33,574 nt of DNA from an uncultured Erysipelotrichaceae bacterium (GCA_902782535.1 CACZNM010000024.1:1-33574); one strand, 5' to 3'. Counted from the stretch's first letter, positions 7,983-26,064 are shown. Made by a program: numbers and translations. Notes: generated by a model not told the origin, from the sequence alone.

Positions 7983-8762
7983 TTAAACCTCATTATACAT
8001 ATTTCTATTTCGACTTGTAATAATCAAAATAATACCTATAATAATCATTGGTATTCCTATTAATTGTGCCATTTTAATACTACCTACCATCAAACTATCT
8101 GTACGCAAACTTTCAATAAAGAATCTTACTATACCATACCAAATTAAATATATACCCGTAATAACACCAAATTTAATTTTCCTATTACGTCTTAAAATTA
8201 TTAAAGTAATAAAGCATATTAAATTTAACAATGATTCATAAAGAAAGGTTGGATGATAATATACACCACTAATATTCATACCCTCAATAATAAAGTTTGG
8301 TAAATGTAATTTTTCTAAAAAAGTTCTTGTAACTATTCCACCATGAGCCTCACTATTAAAGAAATTCCCCCATCTACCAATTATTTGACCAATTAATAAA
8401 GCTGGGGCACAAATATCTAATATTTCAATAAATTGCCATTTATTTTTTTTGCAATAAATTAGTATCGCTAATACCGCCCCAATAATTCCACCATGAATAG
8501 CAAGACCACCATTCCATACTTCAAGTATTTCAATAGGATCTTGTAAATAATAATCTAAATTAAATAAGACATAATAAATTCTTGCACCTAAGAAACCACA
8601 TAGTATTGCTAAAAAAGCCATATTTTCAAACTTTGTAGTATCCATTTTTTTACGTTTTATTTCAATATAGGCAACAATAATTCCTAATAAAACACCTAAA
8701 AACATTGTAATAGAATACCAATATATTTTAATAAATCCTAATTCAAATGCTACTCTATTCAT
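7983..8762 (-). CDS. lgt: prolipoprotein diacylglyceryl transferase
   Basis: 259-aa polytopic membrane protein with GGLAIHGGIIGAVL and GRWGNFFNSEAHG motifs. RBS AAGGAGG. Confidence 0.9.
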   Translation of the reverse strand: MNRVAFELGFIKIYWYSITMFLGVLLGIIVAYIEIKRKKMDTTKFENMAFLAILCGFLGARIYYVLFNLDYYLQDPIEILEVWNGGLAIHGGIIGAVLAILIYCKKNKWQFIEILDICAPALLIGQIIGRWGNFFNSEAHGGIVTRTFLEKLHLPNFIIEGMNISGVYYHPTFLYESLLNLICFITLIILRRNRKIKFGVITGIYLIWYGIVRFFIESLRTDSLMVGSIKMAQLIGIPMIIIGIILIITSRNRNMYNEV

Positions 8763-8794
8763 AGTTCCTCCTTGTCATTAGTATATATTTTTTA

Positions 8795-8838
8795 TTAAAA
8801 AAATACAATAAAAAAGTGTATTTTAATTATACACTTTT
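8795..8838 (-). terminator. rho-independent terminator after lysS
   Basis: On the minus strand, AAAAGTGTA-9 nt-TACACTTTT (8812-8838) is followed by TTATTGTATTTTTTT. Confidence 0.6.
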
Positions 8839-8877
8839 CTTATTATTATAATAATACATTACTAATTATATATAAAG

Positions 8878-10350
8878 TTATTTGCTATCATTTTGTCGCA
8901 TTAATGGGAATAAGACAACATCACGAATAGAAGGTACATCATAAATCAACATTAAAAGTCTATCTATGCCAAAACCAAGACCAGAAATTGGTGGCATACC
9001 TTGTTCCATCGCTCCCATAAAGCTTTCATCAATTTCCATTGTCTCATCGTCACCTTGTTCTTTTGCAATCAACTGATCTTCAAATGCACGCCTTTGAACA
9101 ATAGGATCAACAAGCTCAGAATAAGCCTTACATAATTCTGTACCTCCTGCTACTACTTGGAATACATCAATAATACGATTATCTTTATCATTACGACGAG
9201 CAAGAGGGATTAATAAAGCTGGATAATTATATATAACTGTTGGTTCAATAATACCGGCTCTAATAGTTTTCTTATATACAAAATCAATTATTTGACTTAA
9301 AGAATGATAGTCTTCTAAATCTTTCATTGTAAATAATCCTTTTGCAACTATTTTTTCCTTTAATTCATTAGGATTATCAATCGCAAGAAAATCAAAACCA
9401 AGAATCTTTCTTAATCTTTCTACATAATTAATTCTTGTAAAATCTTTACCAAAGTCAAGGGTATTACCTTGATAATTAATTGTCGTAGTACCAATAAGTT
9501 CCATCATTAAATTACGAATAAAATCTTGATAGAATTTTAAATTATCTTCAAAATTCCAATAGGCAGCATACCATTCTACTTGAGTAAATTCTTGTAAATG
9601 CTCTGTATCCATACCTTCATTTCTAAAACATTTAGCAAGTTCATATACACGATGAAATCCCGCTGATATACATTGTTTCAAGTATGTTTCTGGAGCAATA
9701 CGAAGATTAAGATCAATATCAAGGGCATTATGATGTGTATAAAATGGTCTGGCAGCCGCTCCACATACAGCACTTTGTAAAATAGGCGTTTCAACTTCTA
9801 AAAATTCATTTTCTCCTAAATATTTATGAATAAAGGAATATAATTTACTTCTTCCTAAAAAGACTTTTCGAGATTCTTCATTAGAGATTAAATCAACATA
9901 TCTTTCACGATATCTATCTTCTACATCTGTTAGACCATGAAACTTCTCTGGAAGAGGTCTTAAAGCTTTACCTAAAAAGACAAAATCATCAGCACGTAGT
10001 GTTTTCTCTCCCGTTTGAGTAGTAAACATTTCTCCTTCTACACCAATAAAATCACCTACATCAATCATTGATTTAAAGAAAGCATATTTCTCTTCCCCTA
10101 CCAAATCTATCTTAATAGATACCTGTAAACTTCCCTCTAAGTCACGTATTCTAAGAAATGATAATTTTCCCATTTTACGCATAAAGATAATTCTTCCTGC
10201 AACTCTAACATTTTTTTCTCCATCATTTAAATTACATGCATCATGTAAACGATGAGTAATTTCAAATCTTTCTGGATAAGGATTACATACTTTTCTTATT
10301 TCTTCAACCTTATTTCTTCTTACAATTTCTTGTTCTGATAATTCTCTCAT
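8878..10350 (-). CDS. lysS: lysine--tRNA ligase (class II)
   Basis: Motifs CFRNEG and GLGFGIDRLLM. Trimmed to MRELSEQEIV (ATG 10350), because the track extension runs through the upstream RDD gene. The RDD stop and lysS ATG are 1 nt apart. Confidence 0.95.
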   Translation of the reverse strand: MRELSEQEIVRRNKVEEIRKVCNPYPERFEITHRLHDACNLNDGEKNVRVAGRIIFMRKMGKLSFLRIRDLEGSLQVSIKIDLVGEEKYAFFKSMIDVGDFIGVEGEMFTTQTGEKTLRADDFVFLGKALRPLPEKFHGLTDVEDRYRERYVDLISNEESRKVFLGRSKLYSFIHKYLGENEFLEVETPILQSAVCGAAARPFYTHHNALDIDLNLRIAPETYLKQCISAGFHRVYELAKCFRNEGMDTEHLQEFTQVEWYAAYWNFEDNLKFYQDFIRNLMMELIGTTTINYQGNTLDFGKDFTRINYVERLRKILGFDFLAIDNPNELKEKIVAKGLFTMKDLEDYHSLSQIIDFVYKKTIRAGIIEPTVIYNYPALLIPLARRNDKDNRIIDVFQVVAGGTELCKAYSELVDPIVQRRAFEDQLIAKEQGDDETMEIDESFMGAMEQGMPPISGLGFGIDRLLMLIYDVPSIRDVVLFPLMRQNDSK

Positions 10351-10351
10351 T

Positions 10352-11053
10352 TTATTTACCTTCTTTCTTTTTTGTACCCTTTTTCTTTTCACCAACAATT
10401 TCTGCGTCTTTAATCTGTTCATTAGGATCATCTTTTTGATAATTAATATTAACAACTTTCGTATTTGCTATCAAATCATGTAAACCACGACCATCATTTC
10501 GATACATAACAAAGATTAATGAAACAATAAAAATTAACGATAAAACTCCACTAGCTTTCGGTTCAATATCAATATAATTAGTTTTTGATAGAGAATAAAA
10601 CAAAATTATTATTATAGCATTACTTAAAACACTATTAATTATCAAACTTCTTAAAAGATAATTAAAGATATTTAATTCTTTATCATTATTACTTATCATT
10701 CTTATTTTCATTAAATATTTACCAAGGGTTATTCCGTGACAAAAATATGGCATTATTACATAATAAACAATTATTACTATTAAGGTTACTATCGTAATGT
10801 AAATACTGCTTGCAACCAATTCATAATTTAGTTCGCGACTTTTCGCTTGATATTCTTCTAATTCAATTTCTTTTTGACTATATTTAGACATTGTTTCTAA
10901 CATCTCTTTTGATACTTCTTCATATTTTTTAGTATCAGTAAATGTTGAAGAAATTATCCCTGCTAGTAAAGATACAATCAATATATCAATAAAAAACGCT
11001 GCTACTCTTTTATATACTTTAGGTTTTTCAACAATTAATACTTCATTATTCAT
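10352..11053 (-). CDS. RDD family membrane protein with Lys-rich C-terminal tail
   Basis: N-terminal R..AAFFIDILIV and C-terminal GRGLHDLIANTKVV are the RDD signature residues, with 3-4 TM segments. Start set to MNNEVL (ATG 11053) with GAGGAGG 6 nt upstream. The tail is EKKKGTKKKEGK. Confidence 0.75.
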   Translation of the reverse strand: MNNEVLIVEKPKVYKRVAAFFIDILIVSLLAGIISSTFTDTKKYEEVSKEMLETMSKYSQKEIELEEYQAKSRELNYELVASSIYITIVTLIVIIVYYVIMPYFCHGITLGKYLMKIRMISNNDKELNIFNYLLRSLIINSVLSNAIIIILFYSLSKTNYIDIEPKASGVLSLIFIVSLIFVMYRNDGRGLHDLIANTKVVNINYQKDDPNEQIKDAEIVGEKKKGTKKKEGK

Positions 11054-12026
11054 GATATTCCTCCTCAAATTCCTTTAATATTTTTATTATATCACAGGAA
11101 TTAGTTGCTTTATACACTTTTTCTTTAATTATGTTACTATTTTTTAGTCCTTTAAGATACCATGCAACATGATTACGAATTTCTAGGCATACTAACTTCT
11201 CTGGTTTTATCTTTTTTAAATAATTAATATGTTTAATACACATATTAATCTTTTCATGATAATCTCTATTTTTAGGTTCTATTCCTTTATCTAGATAATC
11301 ATTGATATCAGAGATAAACCAGGGATTACCAAGTACACCCCTTCCTATCATAATCATATCACAGCCTGTTTCATCAAGCATTCTTTTAGCATCATAAACG
11401 GTCTTAATATCGCCATTACCAATAACAGGAATCGATACACTTTCTTTAACTTTCTTAATAATACTCCAATCAGCTTTGCCAGAATAACCTTGACAACGTG
11501 TTCTTGGATGTATACAAATAGCACTTGCTCCAGCTTCTTCACATATCTTAGCGATTAAAGGTGCATTAATACTATTCATATCCCATCCACTTCTTATTTT
11601 AACTGTTACAGGACATTTTACACTATTAACAACGGCTTTAACTATTTTCTTTATCTTTTCAGGATTTTTAAGTAATGCACTTCCTGCTTGTGATCTTAAA
11701 GCCACCTTGGGAACAGGACACCCCATATTGATATCAATAATATCGGGATGCATTTCTTTTTCTATATATTTTGCAGCTTCAACAAATGTTTCTTCATCAC
11801 TACCAAATATTTGTTGAGCAAGGGGTCTTTCATCATCTTCCATATATAACATTTCTTTAGTTTTATTGTTACGATAAAAAATAGCTTTATCACTGACCAT
11901 TTCAGCATATATTAAAGCTGCTCCTCGTTCTTTAGCAATTTTTCGAAAAGCACTATTACATATACCAGCCATAGGTGCAAGAGCAACTTTACCTTTAATC
12001 TCAACATTTCCAATTTTAAGCATCAT
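11046..12026 (-). CDS. dusB: tRNA dihydrouridine synthase B
   Basis: 326 aa with LAPMAGICNSAFR and INMGCP motifs, in the conserved position upstream of lysS. Confidence 0.9.
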   Translation of the reverse strand: MMLKIGNVEIKGKVALAPMAGICNSAFRKIAKERGAALIYAEMVSDKAIFYRNNKTKEMLYMEDDERPLAQQIFGSDEETFVEAAKYIEKEMHPDIIDINMGCPVPKVALRSQAGSALLKNPEKIKKIVKAVVNSVKCPVTVKIRSGWDMNSINAPLIAKICEEAGASAICIHPRTRCQGYSGKADWSIIKKVKESVSIPVIGNGDIKTVYDAKRMLDETGCDMIMIGRGVLGNPWFISDINDYLDKGIEPKNRDYHEKINMCIKHINYLKKIKPEKLVCLEIRNHVAWYLKGLKNSNIIKEKVYKATNSCDIIKILKEFEEEYHE

Positions 12027-12054
12027 AAAACCTCTTGGGAATATTATAGTCTAA

Positions 12055-12091
12055 AAAAAGATAAAAGAAAAGAGTTAAATTAATAACTCTT
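12055..12091 (-). terminator. rho-independent terminator after the LysM lipoprotein gene
   Basis: AAGAGTTA-6 nt-TAACTCTT (12070-12091, overlapping the stop) is followed on the minus strand by TTCTTTTATCTTTTTTT. Confidence 0.6.
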
Positions 12092-12542
12092 ATTTTGCCT
12101 TATAATTGTAAATTATTTGATCTACTTCAATTAAATCAATGTTTTTAATGCCATTGTATTTAGCTAACGTATAGCAATTAACATGCCATGTTCTAGCAAT
12201 TAAACTTAATGTGTCACCCCATACTACTTTGTAACTCTTTGCACCAACTTTGGAATTAATTCTAGTGTTTTCTTTCCATTCAACACCATTCCTCTTTAAA
12301 AGTTTAACTTTTTTTGTAGTACTTGAACCATTATTTTTGCTATCATTTTTCTTTGAATCATCCTTAGAATTTTCTTTACCGTTGTCATCCTTCTTATCAG
12401 TACCACCTTTATCATCCTTATCAATTACATCTGGTGTATTACCTTTATCTTCAGGATCATCTTTACCACATCCAGCGGCAACAAGTAAAGTAAAGACTAA
12501 GAGAAAACATAAGAAAAATGTGCTTAATTTGTTAGATTTCAT
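12090..12542 (-). CDS. LysM-domain lipoprotein
   Basis: Trimmed to MKSNKLSTFFLCFLLVFTLLVAAGC (lipobox LVAAGC), with RBS AGGGGGA. D/K/N-rich low-complexity linker, then C-terminal LysM (YKVVWGDTLSLIARTWHVNCYTLAKYNGI). Confidence 0.85.
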   Translation of the reverse strand: MKSNKLSTFFLCFLLVFTLLVAAGCGKDDPEDKGNTPDVIDKDDKGGTDKKDDNGKENSKDDSKKNDSKNNGSSTTKKVKLLKRNGVEWKENTRINSKVGAKSYKVVWGDTLSLIARTWHVNCYTLAKYNGIKNIDLIEVDQIIYNYKAK

Positions 12543-12627
12543 AATGTTCCCCCTACCTTTCCTATCTCTACAATGTAATTGTATCATAGCATCAAAAGTA
12601 AAAGAGAATATTTGACACATTATGACA

Positions 12628-14316
12628 TTATTTTTTCAATGTTTTATTATTCTCTTCATCATCATCAAAAGATTGTCTAATTTTTTCTGTTGCCTCTTCT
12701 TTATCTAACAGATTATTATAATAATCCCTTGTAATTTTATTACATTTTTTTAAATGGAAGTAAATTAAATCTTTTTCATCTTCACTACAGTCAGACATTT
12801 CATATATTTTAGATAAAAAGTATTCTATTTTCTCTTCATCATCTATAAAATATCTATTATTTTGATCAAAACAATATATTCCCCATGGTAATTCATTCTG
12901 ATTATCAAAGCTTCCATTTGTAACTAATCTCCATAAGATACCACTTTCTGTGAAAGAAAACTCACTATATTGATTACTATAAATACCACTTCTTATACAC
13001 ATCGGATAACTTATTAAATGATTATGACATATTTTATCATGATATTCTTTGGCAACATCCTCCAAATTATTCCACGTAATAATTTCTCGCCAATATGATG
13101 AAGATTTATCATTATATTCACTTTCAAAATCGTTTTTCCAATCAAAAAATTCAAACGCAGTATTATAAGAACCTACCCATCTTGAATGAACAAAAGAATT
13201 TCGTAACTTGTTTCTTGGATATTCCTTTTTTCCTATAGTAATTTTTTCATCATTTACAACTGTATCAAAAATATATCCACAATAAATAAAACAACTTATT
13301 TGTGAAAATAAATCCCAATCATATACTGCACAAAGTTTATTGGGAATTGTTCCAAATTCATTGGTCACATTTTCAAACAAAATATTTTTTTCATCAAATA
13401 ATAACATCATTTGGACTTCTTGTTCAAAATCGCTCATACTTTTATTCTTATTTAATATCAAATACTGTCCTACAAAATATAACATTGTTTCATAATTAAA
13501 TCTTTTTAATTCTGGTAAAGGCATAGCAGTCATTACTAAATATGGTAAAATAGCTCTTCCATTAGCCAGTAATTTTTCCCAACCTTTTAAATCCTGTTGA
13601 ATCTTTCTTTTTTGCGAATATGTTAGAGAAAAAGTTTTAATAACGTCAGGATCAGTAGGATTATCTTTTGGATAAACTTTTTTCATCTCAACATTATCCA
13701 ATAGTGCAAAGCAATTTTTACTATTTAAAGAAGATAAATCCTTTTTTATATCTAAAACATAATGATTTAAATCTTGAACCGTCAAAGCTTTAGACATTAA
13801 CTCATAAAAATCTGCACAAGATATTAAAACATGAAATGGTCTAGGATCTGTATATATTGCTTTTTCTTTTTTAGTTCTAGAATCCGCTATGTCAATTTCA
13901 ATATATATTTTATTATTAATTCTCTTTAATTGATATTGTTCTTTATTATCGCTATGGTTTATAACATTTCTTATATATCTTATAACCCACTTTTTATCAG
14001 GAAACATACTAGCATCATTAGGATTAACAAATATATTTTTATTAATATCAATATTCTCTGGTAAAACGCTTTTAAAATTGGCATCATATAAAATAGAGTT
14101 TATCGACTTCATTAAATAGAAACCAAATACTTCAATCATTTCCATATAATAATATTGTGAAGCATACATGTATCGATTAGTAGAACGCATGTATCCTACA
14201 AAATTAATCCAAAAAGAGACATCTTTATTAAGACATACTGTCGACATTAAATATGAAAAATCATATAAATAATTCGCAATATCCTCCTTGGTTAAAGTAT
14301 ACTCATTTTTATCCAT
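12628..14316 (-). CDS. hypothetical protein with two RNxxxH (HEPN-type) motifs; candidate tandem-HEPN RNase
   Basis: 562-aa uninterrupted ORF with a G-rich RBS. RNVINH is at aa 116-121 (nt 13954-13971) and RNSFVH at aa 372-377 (nt 13186-13203). The ORF itself is secure. The HEPN assignment rests on motifs only. Confidence 0.55.
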   Translation of the reverse strand: MDKNEYTLTKEDIANYLYDFSYLMSTVCLNKDVSFWINFVGYMRSTNRYMYASQYYYMEMIEVFGFYLMKSINSILYDANFKSVLPENIDINKNIFVNPNDASMFPDKKWVIRYIRNVINHSDNKEQYQLKRINNKIYIEIDIADSRTKKEKAIYTDPRPFHVLISCADFYELMSKALTVQDLNHYVLDIKKDLSSLNSKNCFALLDNVEMKKVYPKDNPTDPDVIKTFSLTYSQKRKIQQDLKGWEKLLANGRAILPYLVMTAMPLPELKRFNYETMLYFVGQYLILNKNKSMSDFEQEVQMMLLFDEKNILFENVTNEFGTIPNKLCAVYDWDLFSQISCFIYCGYIFDTVVNDEKITIGKKEYPRNKLRNSFVHSRWVGSYNTAFEFFDWKNDFESEYNDKSSSYWREIITWNNLEDVAKEYHDKICHNHLISYPMCIRSGIYSNQYSEFSFTESGILWRLVTNGSFDNQNELPWGIYCFDQNNRYFIDDEEKIEYFLSKIYEMSDCSEDEKDLIYFHLKKCNKITRDYYNNLLDKEEATEKIRQSFDDDEENNKTLKK

Positions 14317-14340
14317 AATCCCCCCAAATTAATGAAGTAT

Positions 14341-14369
14341 ATTATACCATAAAAATTAAAAAATTGCAA
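14341..14369 (-). promoter_or_regulatory. near-consensus sigma-A promoter of the 562-aa gene
   Basis: Minus strand reads TTGCAA (14364-14369), a 17-nt spacer, then TGgTATAAT (extended -10, with TATAAT at 14341-14346), about 25 nt upstream of the ATG. Confidence 0.6.
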
Positions 14370-14393
14370 AATAAAAGCCTACATTGTAGACTT
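14370..14393 (-). terminator. terminator after the 229-aa gene
   Basis: Imperfect hairpin AAGTCTAC-aat-GTAGGCTT on the minus strand, followed by TTATTTTG. It lies 13 nt after the stop at 14406. Confidence 0.45.
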
Positions 14394-14405
14394 CTTTTTA
14401 ATAAA

Positions 14406-15092
14406 CTATCGTATTTTTTTATTCGTATATCCTTCTAATTCTTGATAATCATTACTAAGTGATTCACGATATTTATCTCTTACAATTAATCCAATTGTTT
14501 TAAGCCAATTATAATATGTCTTATTATAAATAGAATTGGCTTTTATAAAATATTCATTATCATCAATAGCAAGCGTTACAATATCCTTTTTCTGATTTAA
14601 TATACTAACTCTTTCTGTATGATAATCTGGAATAAATTGAGACAAACTATATTTAATGTTGCCTTCTCCATCTACTATATCAGTATATATATCAACATTA
14701 TACGTACTATCCAAATAATTTCTATTACTTTGTCTTACTATAATATAATCTCTACCATTCTTATAACATACTGCATATTCATAACTATTATCCTCTTTAT
14801 TCTCTTTCCATTCTATATTAAATCCATTAAGACTGTTATTAAATATTTTTACCTGATTATCTGAAAGATTAATTTTAAAATACTCTTCTCTCATCGATTT
14901 TGCAAAGACACTATTATTTTCTATTCCTTTGCCATCATTAGGTATTATAATTTTTAATCCAGATAATTCCTCTACTCCACTATTAATAATATCAGAAAAT
15001 ACTCCTAAAACAATTGCTGATCTTGCTGAATCAAGCTTAATTTTTCCATCATGTACTAAATTTATAATTTGATTTACAATATCATATTTCAT
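14406..15092 (-). CDS. hypothetical cytoplasmic protein (229 aa)
   Basis: Start moved to MKYDIV (ATG 15092) because GGAGG sits 8 nt upstream. The track's first ATG overlaps that RBS. No TM segment, signal peptide or recognisable motif. Confidence 0.75.
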   Translation of the reverse strand: MKYDIVNQIINLVHDGKIKLDSARSAIVLGVFSDIINSGVEELSGLKIIIPNDGKGIENNSVFAKSMREEYFKINLSDNQVKIFNNSLNGFNIEWKENKEDNSYEYAVCYKNGRDYIIVRQSNRNYLDSTYNVDIYTDIVDGEGNIKYSLSQFIPDYHTERVSILNQKKDIVTLAIDDNEYFIKANSIYNKTYYNWLKTIGLIVRDKYRESLSNDYQELEGYTNKKIR

Positions 15093-15161
15093 ATACAAAA
15101 CCTCCATTTAATTAGATTATCTAAATATCCTTCGTTTTACAAGTATATTTTCATTATTTGA

Positions 15162-15191
15162 CAAAAAAAGAGCCTATTTATTAAGCTCTTT
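15162..15191 (-). terminator. terminator after ftsH
   Basis: AAAGAGC-11 nt-GCTCTTT spans the ftsH stop and is followed by TTTTGTC on the minus strand. Confidence 0.5.
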
Positions 15192-17132
15192 GATTAATTC
15201 TTCTTTGGTCATTTTAGTATAGCCTTTAATACCAGCTTCTTTGGCTTTTTCACGAAGTTCGTCTTCTGTTAAATCATTAAGTGTAGTATCTTCTGGTAAT
15301 TTACCATTTTCTTCTAGATATAATATTTCTTCATGAGTTAATGTTTCTTTCTCAAGTAGAGCATTTGCTATTAAATGAACTAAATCAATATTATCTTTCA
15401 ATATCTTGGTAGCTTTTTTATAACATTCGTCCATTATCTTGCGAATTTCAATATCAATCTCATGTGCAACCGTATCAGAGAAATTACGTGTTTTATTATA
15501 ATCACGGCCAATAAAGACGCTTTCACTTTGTTGTTCTAATTGAACTGGTCCTAAATCACTCATACCATATTCAGTTACCATAGCACGCGCTATTTTAGTA
15601 GCTTTTTCAAAATCATTATGTGCACCTGTTGTTATTTCACCAAAGTTAATTTCCTCTGATACACGACCACCTAATAATCCTGTTATTTGTTCCAATAATT
15701 CCGTTTTTGTTTCTGTATATTTTTCTTCCTTTGGAACCATCATAGCATATCCACCAGCATAACTACGTGGAATGATTGTTACTTTTTGGACATCATTAGC
15801 ACTAGAAAGTTTTAATCCTAATACAACATGTCCTGCTTCATGATGAGCGACCATATTACGTTCTTTTTCAGTATATTTTTTACTTATTTTAGCAGGTCCC
15901 ATTAAAACACGATCAGTTGCTTCATCTATCTCGCTCATAGTAATAAATTCTTTATTACGACGTACGGCAAGCAAAGCAGCTTCATTAAGTAAATTTTCTA
16001 AATCTGCACCACTAAATCCTGGTGTTCTCTTAGCAAGATTAGATAATGTAATATTTTTATCTAATATTTTATTTCTTGCATGAACTTCAAGTATTTCTTC
16101 ACGACCTTGTTTATCAGGTAAATTAACAGTTACTTGTCTATCAAATCTTCCTGGTCTTAAAAGGGCTGGGTCTAAAACATCGGCGCGGTTTGTTGCAGCG
16201 ATAATAATAATACCTTCGTTAGCACCAAAACCATCCATTTCGGTTAATAATTGATTAAGAGTTTGTTCTCTTTCATCATGTCCACCACCTAATCCTGTTC
16301 CACGTTGACGACCCACAGCATCAATTTCATCAATGAAAATTAAGCATGGAGCGTTATTCTTAGCTTGTTTAAACATATCACGTACACGTGAAGCTCCAAC
16401 ACCAACAAATAATTCAACGAAATCAGATCCACTAATATAATAGAATGGCACATTAGCTTCACCTGCAACAGCACGAGCAAGTAATGTTTTACCAGTTCCA
16501 GGAGGACCAACTAAAAGTACTCCTTTAGGAATTCTTGCCCCTAATTTCTGAAATTTCTTTGGACTTTTTAAGAAATCAATTAATTCTTTTACTTCTTCTT
16601 TTTCTTCTTTTAAACCTGCAACATCTTTGAATGTAACCTTATTACGACTATCAGATAATCTTGCACGACTTTTTCCAAAATCAAATGATTTATTCGCACC
16701 ACCGGCTTGTCTATTTAAGAAGTATAATCCTCCACCAACAATTAATACAAGTGGTAAGAAATTAACTAAAATAACTAATAATGTACTTGCACTTGGATCT
16801 TTATTTACTTTAATCTTATAGTCATACTTTTCATATCCATCTACAAGTTCCTTAATTACTTCATCTGAAAGAGGTGCAGTAACTTTAAAAGATTCATTTT
16901 CTTTATAATCTTTTAATTTACCCTCTATGTAATATACTCCACCATCATTACTTGGAGTAACTTCCATTTCTTTTACTTCGCCACTAGATACTTTTCCCAT
17001 AAATTCATTAAATGTTAAATCATTTACTTTAACACTCATTATTTTATACATATAGAATAGTACAAACATTAATCCTATTAATAAAATATAGGGAATTACA
17101 TTCTTTTTCATTTCTTTTTTATTCATATTCAT
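15174..17132 (-). CDS. ftsH: ATP-dependent zinc metalloprotease FtsH
   Basis: 652 aa with two N-terminal TM segments, Walker [12 protein letters not shown] and zinc site HEAGH. The start could be the third codon (ATG 17126), given where AAGGAGAG sits. Confidence 0.97.
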
Positions 17133-17139
17133 CTCTCCT

Positions 17140-18465
17140 TCATAAACATTTAAATATTATATCACATTTTTCGTCCTTTAGTCTATTATATTTAGATTTT
17201 TTTACTTTAGGAATCCAAATTATTTTATTTTCACTATCAACAACAATTGGCCAAGAATTGCGTTTATTAACTGGAATCTTTGAATTAATTAAAATATCAC
17301 TCACTTTTTTAGAACCTTTCATATTTTTGATAGTCATCTTATCACCATCACATCTTGTTCTAACATGTAATGGTAATGAAACATCACTACTATTAATTCT
17401 TAAAATATCATTACCATCTGTACTTGAAGAATCAATCATTTTTAAAATCATACCATTTGGTAGTACAACCTCATCAGTAAGAAGAATATCATATGATATA
17501 GTATCATCAATATTCTTTTTAAAATATGCATTATTATATTCTTTAATGAACAAATAATTATTTGGCAAAGATAATGATGCACTAGCTTTTTTAGAATTAA
17601 TTAGTTCAATTACTAACTCAACATGTTTATTATTAATATCTGTTAATTCATCTTGATAAATAAGACTAAAAATATATTCTATAATTCTTTTTCCAATTAA
17701 TAAATCCGTCTTTTTAAATTCCTCGATATCAATAATACCATCTTTATATATTCTTTCCATTTCTAATTTTGTTAATTTGGTTAATAACTTATCACAAGAT
17801 ATCAATTCTTCACTAAAATGAAGAAACTTTTCATGAACATTTGCATCTTCTTTCTTTAAGAACGGTAAAACATATTTACGATATCTATTTCTTGTATATT
17901 TATCTTTATAATTACTTTTATCAATACGATAAGGTATATTATTATCTTTATCAAATTGTTCTAAAGCTTCTTTTGTTACAAAGATTAAAGGTCGAACTAT
18001 CTTATAGCCATCCATATCAACTATTTTTTCAAAACCACTATATCCTTTTAGTGTTGATCCTCTAACAATTCGCATAAGAACGGTTTCCATTAAATCGTCA
18101 CCATGATGACCTGTCATTAAATAATTTGCTCGATATTTTTTAATCAATTCATGATAAAAATTATATCTGATATTACGTGCTTCATTATGAAAATTATCAT
18201 CACCATATGTTTTGATAGTCATACTTTCAAAAACAACGTTATTATCCAAGCAATAGTTTTTTAAAAAAACTTCTTCTTCCTTACTTTCTTCTCTTACATT
18301 ATGATTGACATGCGCAACAATTAATTGATAATTAATTTTATCTCTTAATTCAATCAAAATATGTAATAAAGCCATAGAATCGGGTCCTGCTGATACACCT
18401 GTAATAATTACATCATTTTCCTTAAGTTTTATTGTATTTGTTAAAAAATTATATACTTCTTTCAT
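17140..18465 (-). CDS. tilS: tRNA(Ile)-lysidine synthase
   Basis: PP-loop GVSAGPDSMALL. Trimmed to MKEVYNF (ATG 18465) with GGGAG 8 nt upstream. No hpt gene or fusion lies between tilS and ftsH. Confidence 0.9.
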   Translation of the reverse strand: MKEVYNFLTNTIKLKENDVIITGVSAGPDSMALLHILIELRDKINYQLIVAHVNHNVREESKEEEVFLKNYCLDNNVVFESMTIKTYGDDNFHNEARNIRYNFYHELIKKYRANYLMTGHHGDDLMETVLMRIVRGSTLKGYSGFEKIVDMDGYKIVRPLIFVTKEALEQFDKDNNIPYRIDKSNYKDKYTRNRYRKYVLPFLKKEDANVHEKFLHFSEELISCDKLLTKLTKLEMERIYKDGIIDIEEFKKTDLLIGKRIIEYIFSLIYQDELTDINNKHVELVIELINSKKASASLSLPNNYLFIKEYNNAYFKKNIDDTISYDILLTDEVVLPNGMILKMIDSSSTDGNDILRINSSDVSLPLHVRTRCDGDKMTIKNMKGSKKVSDILINSKIPVNKRNSWPIVVDSENKIIWIPKVKKSKYNRLKDEKCDIIFKCL

Positions 18466-25479: not shown

Positions 25480-26064
25480 CTATCTATTTAAAGTTTTTGC
25501 ATTTAAATTTTGAAATTTATTATTACTTTCAATATAACTATTATACAAAATAACATTCATATTGTTTATTAATTCCTTCATTTTATTAACAAATTTATCA
25601 TAGTTTAATACTTGTAAATAGTTATTAATTCTATCATTAGATTTATTTAAACTTTTCTCTATTTCATCAATTAACTCTTTAACCAAATTATTATAGGCTT
25701 TTTTCGTTTCATCAATAAATATTTTTCTTTCATTATTAATACATTCCTGATAATCAACATCATCGATATTACTTATTTCTTTCTTTAGATTTTCATATCT
25801 TTTATTAAGAATACTGGTTATTTCTTGTTTTATATTTTTATAAAAATCATTAACATAACTCTTTATTATCTTTTCATTTTTCTTATTTACAGGATTAATT
25901 TCTAATAATTTATTTATTACTTCATCTTTAAATAGATTTATTACGTTATCAATAACAATATGTAATATTTCATTATTATTATCTAAATCAAGATATAATT
26001 TATTTAAATAAATCTCGCGATTTTTTTCTTCTAATTGTTTTAATACATCATTATCTCTATCCAT
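25480..26064 (-). CDS. hypothetical N/K/E-rich helical protein
   Basis: 194-aa ORF with RBS AAAGGAGGATT-ATG. No TM segment and no recognisable motif. Confidence 0.7.
   Translation of the reverse strand: MDRDNDVLKQLEEKNREIYLNKLYLDLDNNNEILHIVIDNVINLFKDEVINKLLEINPVNKKNEKIIKSYVNDFYKNIKQEITSILNKRYENLKKEISNIDDVDYQECINNERKIFIDETKKAYNNLVKELIDEIEKSLNKSNDRINNYLQVLNYDKFVNKMKELINNMNVILYNSYIESNNKFQNLNAKTLNR

Follow-up and report, generated by a model that had tools for sequence, protein, structure and literature searches.

A layered accessory slot between ftsH and dusB in an uncultured Erysipelotrichaceae bacterium and a candidate tandem HEPN-like RNase encoded in it

The signature h-R-[ND]-x-x-x-H is a hallmark of HEPN enzymes. 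AbiD/AbiF (Abi_2) proteins are stand-alone, defence-type RNxxxH proteins, often scattered singly in Firmicutes genomes and on mobile elements, with one HEPN domain per chain in a homodimer. Cas13an is a compact ancestral type VI effector of 429-577 amino acids (aa) with two HEPN domains; it is invisible to Foldseek and to hidden Markov model (HMM) searches that start from known Cas13, and three of the 13 published sequences have no adjacent array (Science 2024, PMC12165695). HepS is a prophage-encoded stand-alone HEPN anticodon nuclease that is constitutive and antitoxin-free and is opened by a phage tail protein; it is a small single-HEPN protein forming a tetramer, and its homologs are restricted to at most 250 aa (Nature 2026, PMC13043305). 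We analysed a DNA stretch of 33,574 nucleotides (nt) from an uncultured Erysipelotrichaceae bacterium (GCA_902782535.1, CACZNM010000024.1:1-33574), called the window below. Between ftsH and dusB it encodes a 562-aa protein with two R[ND]xxxH motifs, together with a 228-aa orphan and a LysM lipoprotein.

It was concluded that the junction between ftsH and dusB in this clade of gut and rumen Bacilli (uncultured, ~27% GC) is a permissive intergenic slot whose ancestral state was short or empty, and that the three genes in it are independently promoted, vertically inherited additions of different ages, not one island or operon. Our overall explanation joins this layered slot to a candidate tandem HEPN-like ribonuclease (RNase), and we give it a probability of roughly 0.65. 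The RNase assignment taken by itself, a stand-alone tandem HEPN-like enzyme with neither array, noncoding RNA nor antitoxin next to it, draws on motifs, a predicted structure and analogy, and we put it at even odds. The features of the 562-aa gene are as follows (positions are those of the whole window, and all slot genes and signals are on the minus strand).

12628-14316, minus strand: 562-aa gene, with two R[ND]xxxH motifs
14341-14369, minus strand: promoter of the 562-aa gene, TTGCAA, 17 nt, TGgTATAAT (an extended -10), then a GGGGGG ribosome binding site (RBS)
13954-13971, minus strand: motif 1, R116-N-V-I-N-H121 (aa 116-121), at the C-terminal end of helix 108-120, with a beta-hairpin after it
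13186-13203, minus strand: motif 2, R372-N-S-F-V-H377 (aa 372-377) and then S-R-W, at the end of helix 368-376, with a beta-hairpin after it

An exhaustive profile search over 1.84e9 representatives (50% identity clusters, cut-off E<=1e-3) gave 115 cluster representatives for the 562-aa family, 72 of them below 1e-10, with typical lengths of 430-590 aa. The sole name found in any source is "hypothetical protein [Bacilli bacterium]". All family contexts recovered have a G+C content (GC) of 23-28%, and the family is so far confined to low-GC uncultured gut and rumen Bacilli. Conservation was scored on 80 full-length members, whose identity to the query is 18-30%. Nine positions are at least 90% conserved among these 80 (D78, R116, H121, Q235, P266, R372, H377, R379, and D392). 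R[ND]xxxH is present twice in almost every member, near residues 115 and 380-420, and these are the most conserved positions. Each protein carries two copies of the HEPN-type R-x4-6-H motif with a polar residue after the Arg. About half of the full-length members (~430-490 aa) do not have the C-terminal extension. Two proteins of 163-167 aa (cluster representatives P0019 and P0065) match only this optional extension (profile ~380-540), which could mean that the C-domain also exists by itself or that they are fragments from contig edges.

AlphaFold2 with the 80-sequence alignment, which replaced a 4-sequence run with a predicted local distance difference test score (pLDDT) of 61.6, produced a model with pLDDT 89.2 and a predicted template modelling score (pTM) of 0.89. 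The model shows two similar modules, each with a helix ending in RNxxxH (108-120 and 368-376) followed by a beta-hairpin, a strand and a helix. Alignment of the N-half to the C-half by hhalign placed the motif regions in register (P=0.005). In the proposed mechanism, the two duplicated helix-RNxxxH-hairpin modules would come together within the chain and make up a composite site of HEPN type, like those of Cas13 and Cas13an. The RNase would be made constitutively and stay latent until a trigger, for example a phage product, opens the site in a HepS-like manner.

The closest likeness in layout is to Cas13an. Both are single chains of similar size (430-590 aa here vs 429-577 aa) with an R-N-x3-H type motif in each half, both have a post-motif-2 region of the form H-G-x-W/F-hydrophobic followed by a predicted hairpin, and neither family is reachable from known Cas13 by HMM or Foldseek. 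They differ in motif 1 (IRNAFNHND here vs R[HN][FWY]LEH in Cas13an), in the hosts, which here are low-GC uncultured Bacilli, and in the lack of a CRISPR array. No array was found in the window or at 16 family loci, the other loci showing only coding neighbours, and neither an array nor repeated DNA lies beside any of ~25 family loci. A search around family members for tandem repeats and Rfam RNAs, including the AbiF RNA RF03085, was negative as well. The intergenic space around the four 562-aa orthologs is filled by promoters and terminators, with no room for an adjacent noncoding RNA.

One could argue from the shared size class and two-motif layout, from the resemblance of IRNSFVHGRWF to the HEPN2 sequence IRNxIAHGGFFW, and from the published Cas13an sequences without adjacent arrays that the 562-aa protein is an RNA-guided Cas13an-like effector or a pre-CRISPR relative, with its guide elsewhere or in its own transcript. 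We consider the chance of this very small. The absence of arrays and of Rfam RNA, the filled intergenic space and the short extent of the profile likeness speak against it: hhalign against the Cas13an alignment matched 14 columns only, at 19-28% probability (kIRNSFVHgRWf to iRNxiAHnGfFW in HEPN2). By profile comparison (hhalign to Cas13an and the PDB profile search) the protein showed no Cas13 homology that would make it a type VI effector. The 562-aa family is not among the 12 clusters with two HEPN domains per chain in the Cas13an study (PMC12165695). A further reading, which we regard as doubtful, is that the family represents undescribed compact two-HEPN-motif proteins that are sister to or precursor of the AbiD/F-to-Cas13an lineage, or else a new RNase fold that converged on R-N-x3-H.

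Like AbiD/AbiF, the 562-aa protein stands alone, but it has two motifs per chain where those proteins have one HEPN domain and form homodimers. Neither a match to PF07751 (Abi_2) nor an RF03085 RNA was found for the protein or its family. To HepS the likeness lies in the proposed working logic: constitutive synthesis, no antitoxin, sequestered catalytic residues, and opening by a phage protein. HepS is carried on a prophage, whereas the tandem protein is chromosomal and sits between core genes.

To compare the locus among relatives, 80 loci from related species were collected with DusB as the anchor (labels beginning with L). They come from metagenome-assembled genomes of uncultured Bacilli, "Tenericutes" or Erysipelotrichaceae from gut and rumen, and the relatives include Candidatus Faecimonas, Faecenecus, Scybalousia, and Fimihabitans. 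A word-indexed search of 5.8e9 proteins found only three other homologs of the 562-aa gene, all at the same locus right after ftsH (L001/L002, L003/L004, and L010). The promoter read from the sequence in the original prediction (TTGCAA, 17 nt, TGgTATAAT) is present, and its counterpart TGnTATAAT with GGGGG is found upstream of the orthologs in L001, L003, and L010 and of a pseudogene in L005, directly after the conserved ftsH terminator. Hexamer pairs resembling promoters show no enrichment here, in an AT-rich stretch (29 found vs 27.9 expected); what makes the promoters credible is their conservation at orthologous loci, not a consensus match.

The clade can do without the 562-aa gene. L012 and L013 lack it, and the nearest relative (L005-L009) has a pseudogene with identical lesions in five independent assemblies: a 1-nt frameshift, a 30-nt deletion and a 960-nt in-frame deletion. 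The last one runs exactly from one to the other of two TGATAAAA 8-mers (window 13992-13999 and 13032-13039) and removes aa 107-426 with both RNxxxH motifs (L005 locus, 10719-11491). What is left in L005 includes an intact 179-aa open reading frame (ORF) that retains the C-terminal extension. The gene's ratio of nonsynonymous to synonymous substitution rates (dN/dS) is 0.27-0.47 vs 0.03-0.25 in the neighbouring genes, so it is constrained, but less than they are. A role in conflict or abortive infection fits because the gene is dispensable and fast-evolving. L004 was considered as a second pseudogene and rejected: both the 562-aa homolog and dusB are split into several ORFs in that contig (7330-8986 and 9912-10869), and dusB is intact in the sister assembly L003. 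Because dusB is split too, the L004 frameshifts are read as assembly errors, probably not biology.

At the family loci elsewhere the genomic neighbours are mixed. A search of metagenomes with a 19-sequence subset gave 17 loci, and the same 19-sequence profile found no family locus in viral contigs. No neighbour gene recurs across 18 family loci as a toxin-antitoxin partner would. Some members adjoin MazEF, a HipA-like kinase, XRE/Bro-N or a Mob_Pre fragment. Others lie among secA, hisS, asnS/aminoacyl-tRNA synthetase (tRNA-synt_2 family), PP2C, SDR, and NrtR/NUDIX genes.

Several results weigh against a tandem HEPN-like RNase acting in conflict. The duplication signal is weak, with an hhalign probability of 8-40%. 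Pfam (query and all 80 members), NCBIfam, PADLOC, and PHROGs have no match to the 562-aa family, the best hit in a PDB sequence profile search has E=0.061 and is no match, and Foldseek of the model against PDB and BFVD returned nothing at E below 0.6. The Foldseek, Pfam and PDB negatives are weak ones, because Foldseek and HMMs are reported to miss true HEPN relationships also (PMC12165695). Several members sit amid plain housekeeping genes, not in defence islands, and because of this the anti-phage role rests on dispensability, patchiness and analogy. The 562-aa remnants in L005 have a dN/dS of 0.08-0.15, so that either the deletion is recent or the C-terminal piece is still useful. Finally, the lack of the gene in L012 and L013 could reflect a later gain and not a loss, since the tree does not resolve the node concerned.

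Many of these points would suit a different function, that of a non-essential lineage-specific enzyme or binding protein in RNA or nucleotide processing. To the lack of similarity to HEPN and defence families and the housekeeping surroundings (asnS, PP2C, SDR, NrtR/NUDIX, secA, hisS) it adds a promoter and RBS that look strong and constitutive, the lack of an antitoxin, and purifying selection. We judge it unlikely, though deserving of real weight. A processing enzyme of this kind accords poorly with a family that is rare (115 clusters among 1.84e9 representatives) and patchy within a genus-level clade, including a pseudogene, with a gene that evolves faster than every neighbour, with the HEPN signature occurring twice per chain, and with the members beside MazEF, a HipA-like kinase, XRE/Bro-N and Mob remnants.

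The slot and its borders consist of the following further features.

17140-18465, minus strand: tilS
15174-17132, minus strand: ftsH, a 652-aa ORF, the backbone gene upstream of the slot, forming its left border
15157-15191, minus strand: ftsH intrinsic terminator (stem 15167-15191), AAAGAGCUUAAUAAAUAGGCUCUUU and then a U-run, overlapping the stop codon
14406-15092, minus strand: 228-aa orphan gene, an ORF with ATG after GGAGG
14370-14393, minus strand: terminator hairpin of the 228-aa gene (stem 14375-14393), AAGUCUACAAUGUAGGCUU and then UUUAUUUU
12543-12627, minus strand: 85-nt spacer, the LysM control region, with conserved columns in the alignment
12610-12627, minus strand: TGTCAT-N4-TGTCAA direct repeat, upstream of the LysM promoter
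12583-12591, minus strand: extended -10 of LysM, TGCTATGAT (exact-string match)
12569-12583, minus strand: palindrome TACAATGTAATTGTA (exact-string match)
12090-12542, minus strand: LysM lipoprotein gene (150 aa, PF01476)
12055-12091, minus strand: LysM terminator (stem 12070-12091), AAGAGUUA-UUAAUU-UAACUCUU and then a U-tract
11046-12026, minus strand: dusB (PF01207, E=2.8e-89), the backbone gene downstream of the slot, forming its right border

The minus-strand order is tilS, ftsH, 228-aa orphan, 562-aa ORF, LysM lipoprotein, dusB, an RDD-family gene and lysS. The window is ~27% GC (mean 27.2%) and nearly all of its genes are on this strand. Every gene and signal that had been named from the sequence alone is at its place, the signals by an exact-string check. 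FtsH of L001-L009 is 91-99% identical to that of the window, and Pfam finds FtsH_ext, AAA, and Peptidase_M41 there. The ftsH terminator is the sole site that passed a strict terminator scan (fold -10.5 kcal/mol, z=-4.0), and its sequence is conserved in L001, L003, L005, and L010. The hairpin after the 228-aa gene folds at -9.9 kcal/mol (z=-3.7), has a U-run after it and is kept in L005; the LysM terminator folds at -7.7 kcal/mol (z=-2.8).

The backbone tilS-ftsH-[slot]-dusB-RDD-lysS is kept in ~65 related loci. The gap from ftsH to dusB ranges from 72 to 3659 bp; it is at most 190 bp in 12 species and at most 140 bp in 11 of these 12. In L011 and L013 the order is ftsH-LysM-dusB with no gene between ftsH and LysM. 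Elsewhere the cargo is unrelated (mscL-like, Wzy_C, GT2-like, PDDEXK_2, Fic, GNAT, XRE, Ltp, radical-SAM-like), so the interval does vary among relatives, as the original prediction expected. The same prediction held that the three genes replace a conserved interval. In B. subtilis these parts of the backbone are separated by housekeeping genes (coaX, hslO, cysK, and the folate genes). The ancestral order here is ftsH beside dusB, and no block like coaX...folK was displaced, because the ancestral junction was empty.

Individual relatives illustrate the range of cargo. The slot of L026 (6386-9932) holds a GNAT gene, a double helix-turn-helix XRE gene and an Ltp surface lipoprotein gene; the Ltp family is known from prophage superinfection exclusion. 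In L012 a PDDEXK_2 transposase-like gene (8429-9325) occupies the opposite strand, and the slot gene of L014 (8043-9416) encodes a Wzy_C membrane protein. The Wzy_C slot genes are O-antigen-ligase-like, and the Wzy_C and GT2-like products are membrane proteins. In one lineage, L001, a 74-aa ORF and a Fic/DOC-family gene (PF02661) lie between LysM and dusB (11924-12771), possibly a Fic toxin plus a small partner protein. In L037-L090 a single ORF of 130-165 aa, ~400-500 bp upstream of dusB, reads by eye as MscL (FISRGNVVDMAVGVIIG...). The ~140-aa ORFs adjoining dusB in distant relatives were considered as divergent LysM genes and rejected as mscL-like.

With its fixed flanks (ftsH and dusB), alternative unrelated cargo in relatives and some conflict-type cargo (Fic, Ltp, PDDEXK_2, XRE), the slot resembles a core-gene-flanked hotspot or islet. 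It differs from a typical hotspot in that the cargo is mostly of envelope or housekeeping type (mscL, Wzy_C, GT2, radical SAM), in having no integrase, tRNA or attachment (att) repeat, and in its slow turnover, the layers co-diverging with the flanks.

The three genes are lineage-specific and accessory, as first proposed. Their phyletic ranges differ: LysM is the widest, being found in all 13 close loci, the 562-aa gene is patchy and restricted to the lineages of the window, L005, L001, L003, and L010, and the 228-aa gene is the narrowest, with only the window and L005. On a neighbor-joining tree built on TilS+FtsH+DusB+LysS, LysM is the oldest layer, the 562-aa gene is intermediate and the 228-aa gene is the youngest. 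When the window is compared with L005, all genes of the locus have a synonymous divergence (dS) of 0.43-0.64, and this holds for the 228-aa gene and the 562-aa remnants too. Between the window and L001 it is 0.8-1.15 and alike for the 562-aa gene, LysM, dusB, and tilS. The slot had been described as more AT-rich than its flanks. This is correct against ftsH and dusB (25.9% GC vs 31-32%), but within the whole window the slot is unremarkable: 28% of 3-kb windows equal or exceed it in AT content (25.9% GC vs the mean of 27.2%). The GC of the three slot genes ranks 27th, 11th, and 8th of 35, their GC at third codon positions is ordinary, and the composition of the slot is indistinguishable from the background. 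The window and the slot borders contain no integrase, transposase, tRNA, or long flanking or att repeat, in agreement with the first reading of the sequence. Inheritance looks vertical for all three genes because composition and dS match the flanks and mobility genes are absent.

The comparison shows that unrelated genes were added to the slot singly, each with its own promoter and terminator, and were then inherited vertically and sometimes lost. The LysM lipoprotein gene was acquired before the split from L014, L011, and L018. The 562-aa gene came afterwards, as a monocistronic gene with its own promoter, and settled between the terminator of ftsH and the promoter of LysM. The 228-aa cassette was inserted last, between the ftsH terminator and the 562-aa promoter.

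The LysM lipoprotein has the lipobox LVAAG|C as read from the sequence (N-terminus MKSNKLSTFFLCFLLVFTLLVAAG|C), and residues 104-144 match PF01476 with E=1.8e-8, which together identify a LysM lipoprotein. In all close lineages (L001-L009, L011-L014, L016, and L018) an ortholog immediately precedes dusB, and five of them (L011-L014 and L018) have it without the 562-aa gene. Its dN/dS is 0.15-0.17. In an alignment of the 100 nt that precede LysM in nine lineages, where the gene on the upstream side is one of five (alignment A4), the invariant elements are a pair of TGT[CA]A boxes (10-11 nt apart), the extended -10 TaTGnTAnnnT, TTGTA, and a GGGGG RBS. The promoter is kept in all nine lineages irrespective of the upstream gene, including L011 and L013, where LysM comes right after ftsH. 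The element TGcTATGAT, put forward earlier as a possible internal promoter, turns out to be this conserved LysM promoter. The 15-bp palindrome at 12569-12583 exists and overlaps the conserved TTGTA (in the window, an ATTGTA element lies inside it, and a GGGGG RBS is present in the spacer), but the palindrome itself is not conserved.

The T/G/T/A columns of the direct repeat are invariant in the nine lineages (window, L001, L003, L005, L011-L014, and L018). In L018 the repeat reads TGTAAA-N5-TGTTAA and matches the WalR-type consensus, TGTWAH-N5-TGTWAH. The TGT[CA]A direct repeat may be an operator for a cell-wall response regulator. The lipoprotein itself is probably associated with the cell wall and controlled by a regulator of its own.

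The 85-nt spacer contains neither a terminator nor a significant fold (z=-1.5), and the fold analysis bears out its earlier description as terminator-free. As no terminator separates the two genes, transcription of the 562-aa gene may run on into LysM. The proposed pairing of an RNase candidate with a co-transcribed lipoprotein is not supported: LysM has its own conserved promoter, the pairing is one of synteny only, and none of the family loci elsewhere (21 of 21) has a LysM or 228-aa neighbour.

These observations bear on the compact-island reading of the locus, according to which a single defence island or operon arrived by horizontal transfer and displaced housekeeping genes, with the RNase candidate acting jointly with the LysM protein made from the same transcript. 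The three genes are indeed adjacent and on the same strand, no terminator separates the 562-aa gene from LysM, none of the three has homologs outside a narrow lineage, and Fic, Ltp, and PDDEXK_2 genes are found in the slot of relatives. We nevertheless hold a single island to be very improbable and the reading to be largely refuted. Two outcomes that the original prediction had named as counting against it were observed, a composition like that of the background and a lack of co-occurrence beyond this synteny. The phyletic ranges differ, LysM has its own promoter and occurs alone in L011-L014 and L018, and the 562-aa family never adjoins LysM elsewhere. In addition, dS is uniform, dS and composition match the flanks, mobility genes and repeats are absent, and the ancestral junction was empty.

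The orphan gene encodes 228 aa when read from the ATG following GGAGG; a 233-aa reading begins inside the RBS. Among 5.8e9 proteins it has one homolog cluster (P0006, 77% identity), at the same position and only in the nearest relative (L005-L009), so that the gene is present in two species only; it is absent from L001, L003, and L010. A dN/dS of 0.27 argues that it is a real coding gene. The protein had no match in Pfam, NCBIfam, PADLOC, or PHROGs at E below 0.05. A 213-aa ORF in L003 was considered as a homolog and rejected, as it is the N-terminal part of the 562-aa homolog cut by 10 Ns. The 228-aa cassette, which has its own terminator, lies downstream of the ftsH terminator and ahead of the 562-aa promoter. 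The ftsH and 228-aa terminators share a 3' arm made of TAGGCT and a T-run (15171-15176 and 14376-14381). This 6-nt sequence is the sole repeat at the cassette ends, and it may be a trace of the insertion or may be due to chance.

Its place immediately upstream on the same strand, the orphan status of both genes and the purifying selection on the 228-aa gene might suggest a two-gene system, in which the 228-aa protein serves the 562-aa protein as antitoxin, immunity factor or sensor. We find this most improbable, as a terminator and a separate promoter stand between the two genes, the orthologs in L001, L003, and L010 are found without the 228-aa gene, L005-L009 keep the 228-aa gene intact while the 562-aa gene is destroyed, and no 228-aa relative accompanies other family members (18 loci).

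Three further observations concern the window outside the slot. The lysS call (TTG at 10455; 8878-10455) and the RDD gene (10352-11068) overlap by ~100 nt, and the true lysS start is probably an ATG near 10350, as in the 490-aa orthologs. At 1362-1623 the sign of the GC skew flips, and mnmE (plus strand, 6-1361) and a minus-strand gene of 324 aa are convergent; this region may be a strand-switch point or a replication landmark. Between metS and mfd, a 194-aa ORF of 17% GC with no Pfam match (25480-26064) lies beside a SpoVT/AbrB-like regulator (PF15714, PF04014; 24931-25437) and is a further lineage-specific gene in the conserved backbone.

The locus is an ordinary slow-turnover accessory slot, and showing this removes the reading as a defence island or operon. 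The interest of the 562-aa family lies in proteins annotated as hypothetical only, with a confident predicted structure that matches nothing solved and a chain the size of Cas13an. The natural pseudogene and the short (~450 aa) and long (~560 aa) forms are ready comparisons. If the 562-aa protein is a tandem-HEPN RNase, it would be a compact RNase scaffold from an under-studied clade and a CRISPR-independent, partner-free addition to the few single-chain two-HEPN enzymes, relevant to the origin of Cas13. If the family is sister to or precursor of the AbiD/F-to-Cas13an lineage, it would offer a natural example of the fused two-HEPN enzyme that is proposed to predate the RNA guidance of Cas13.

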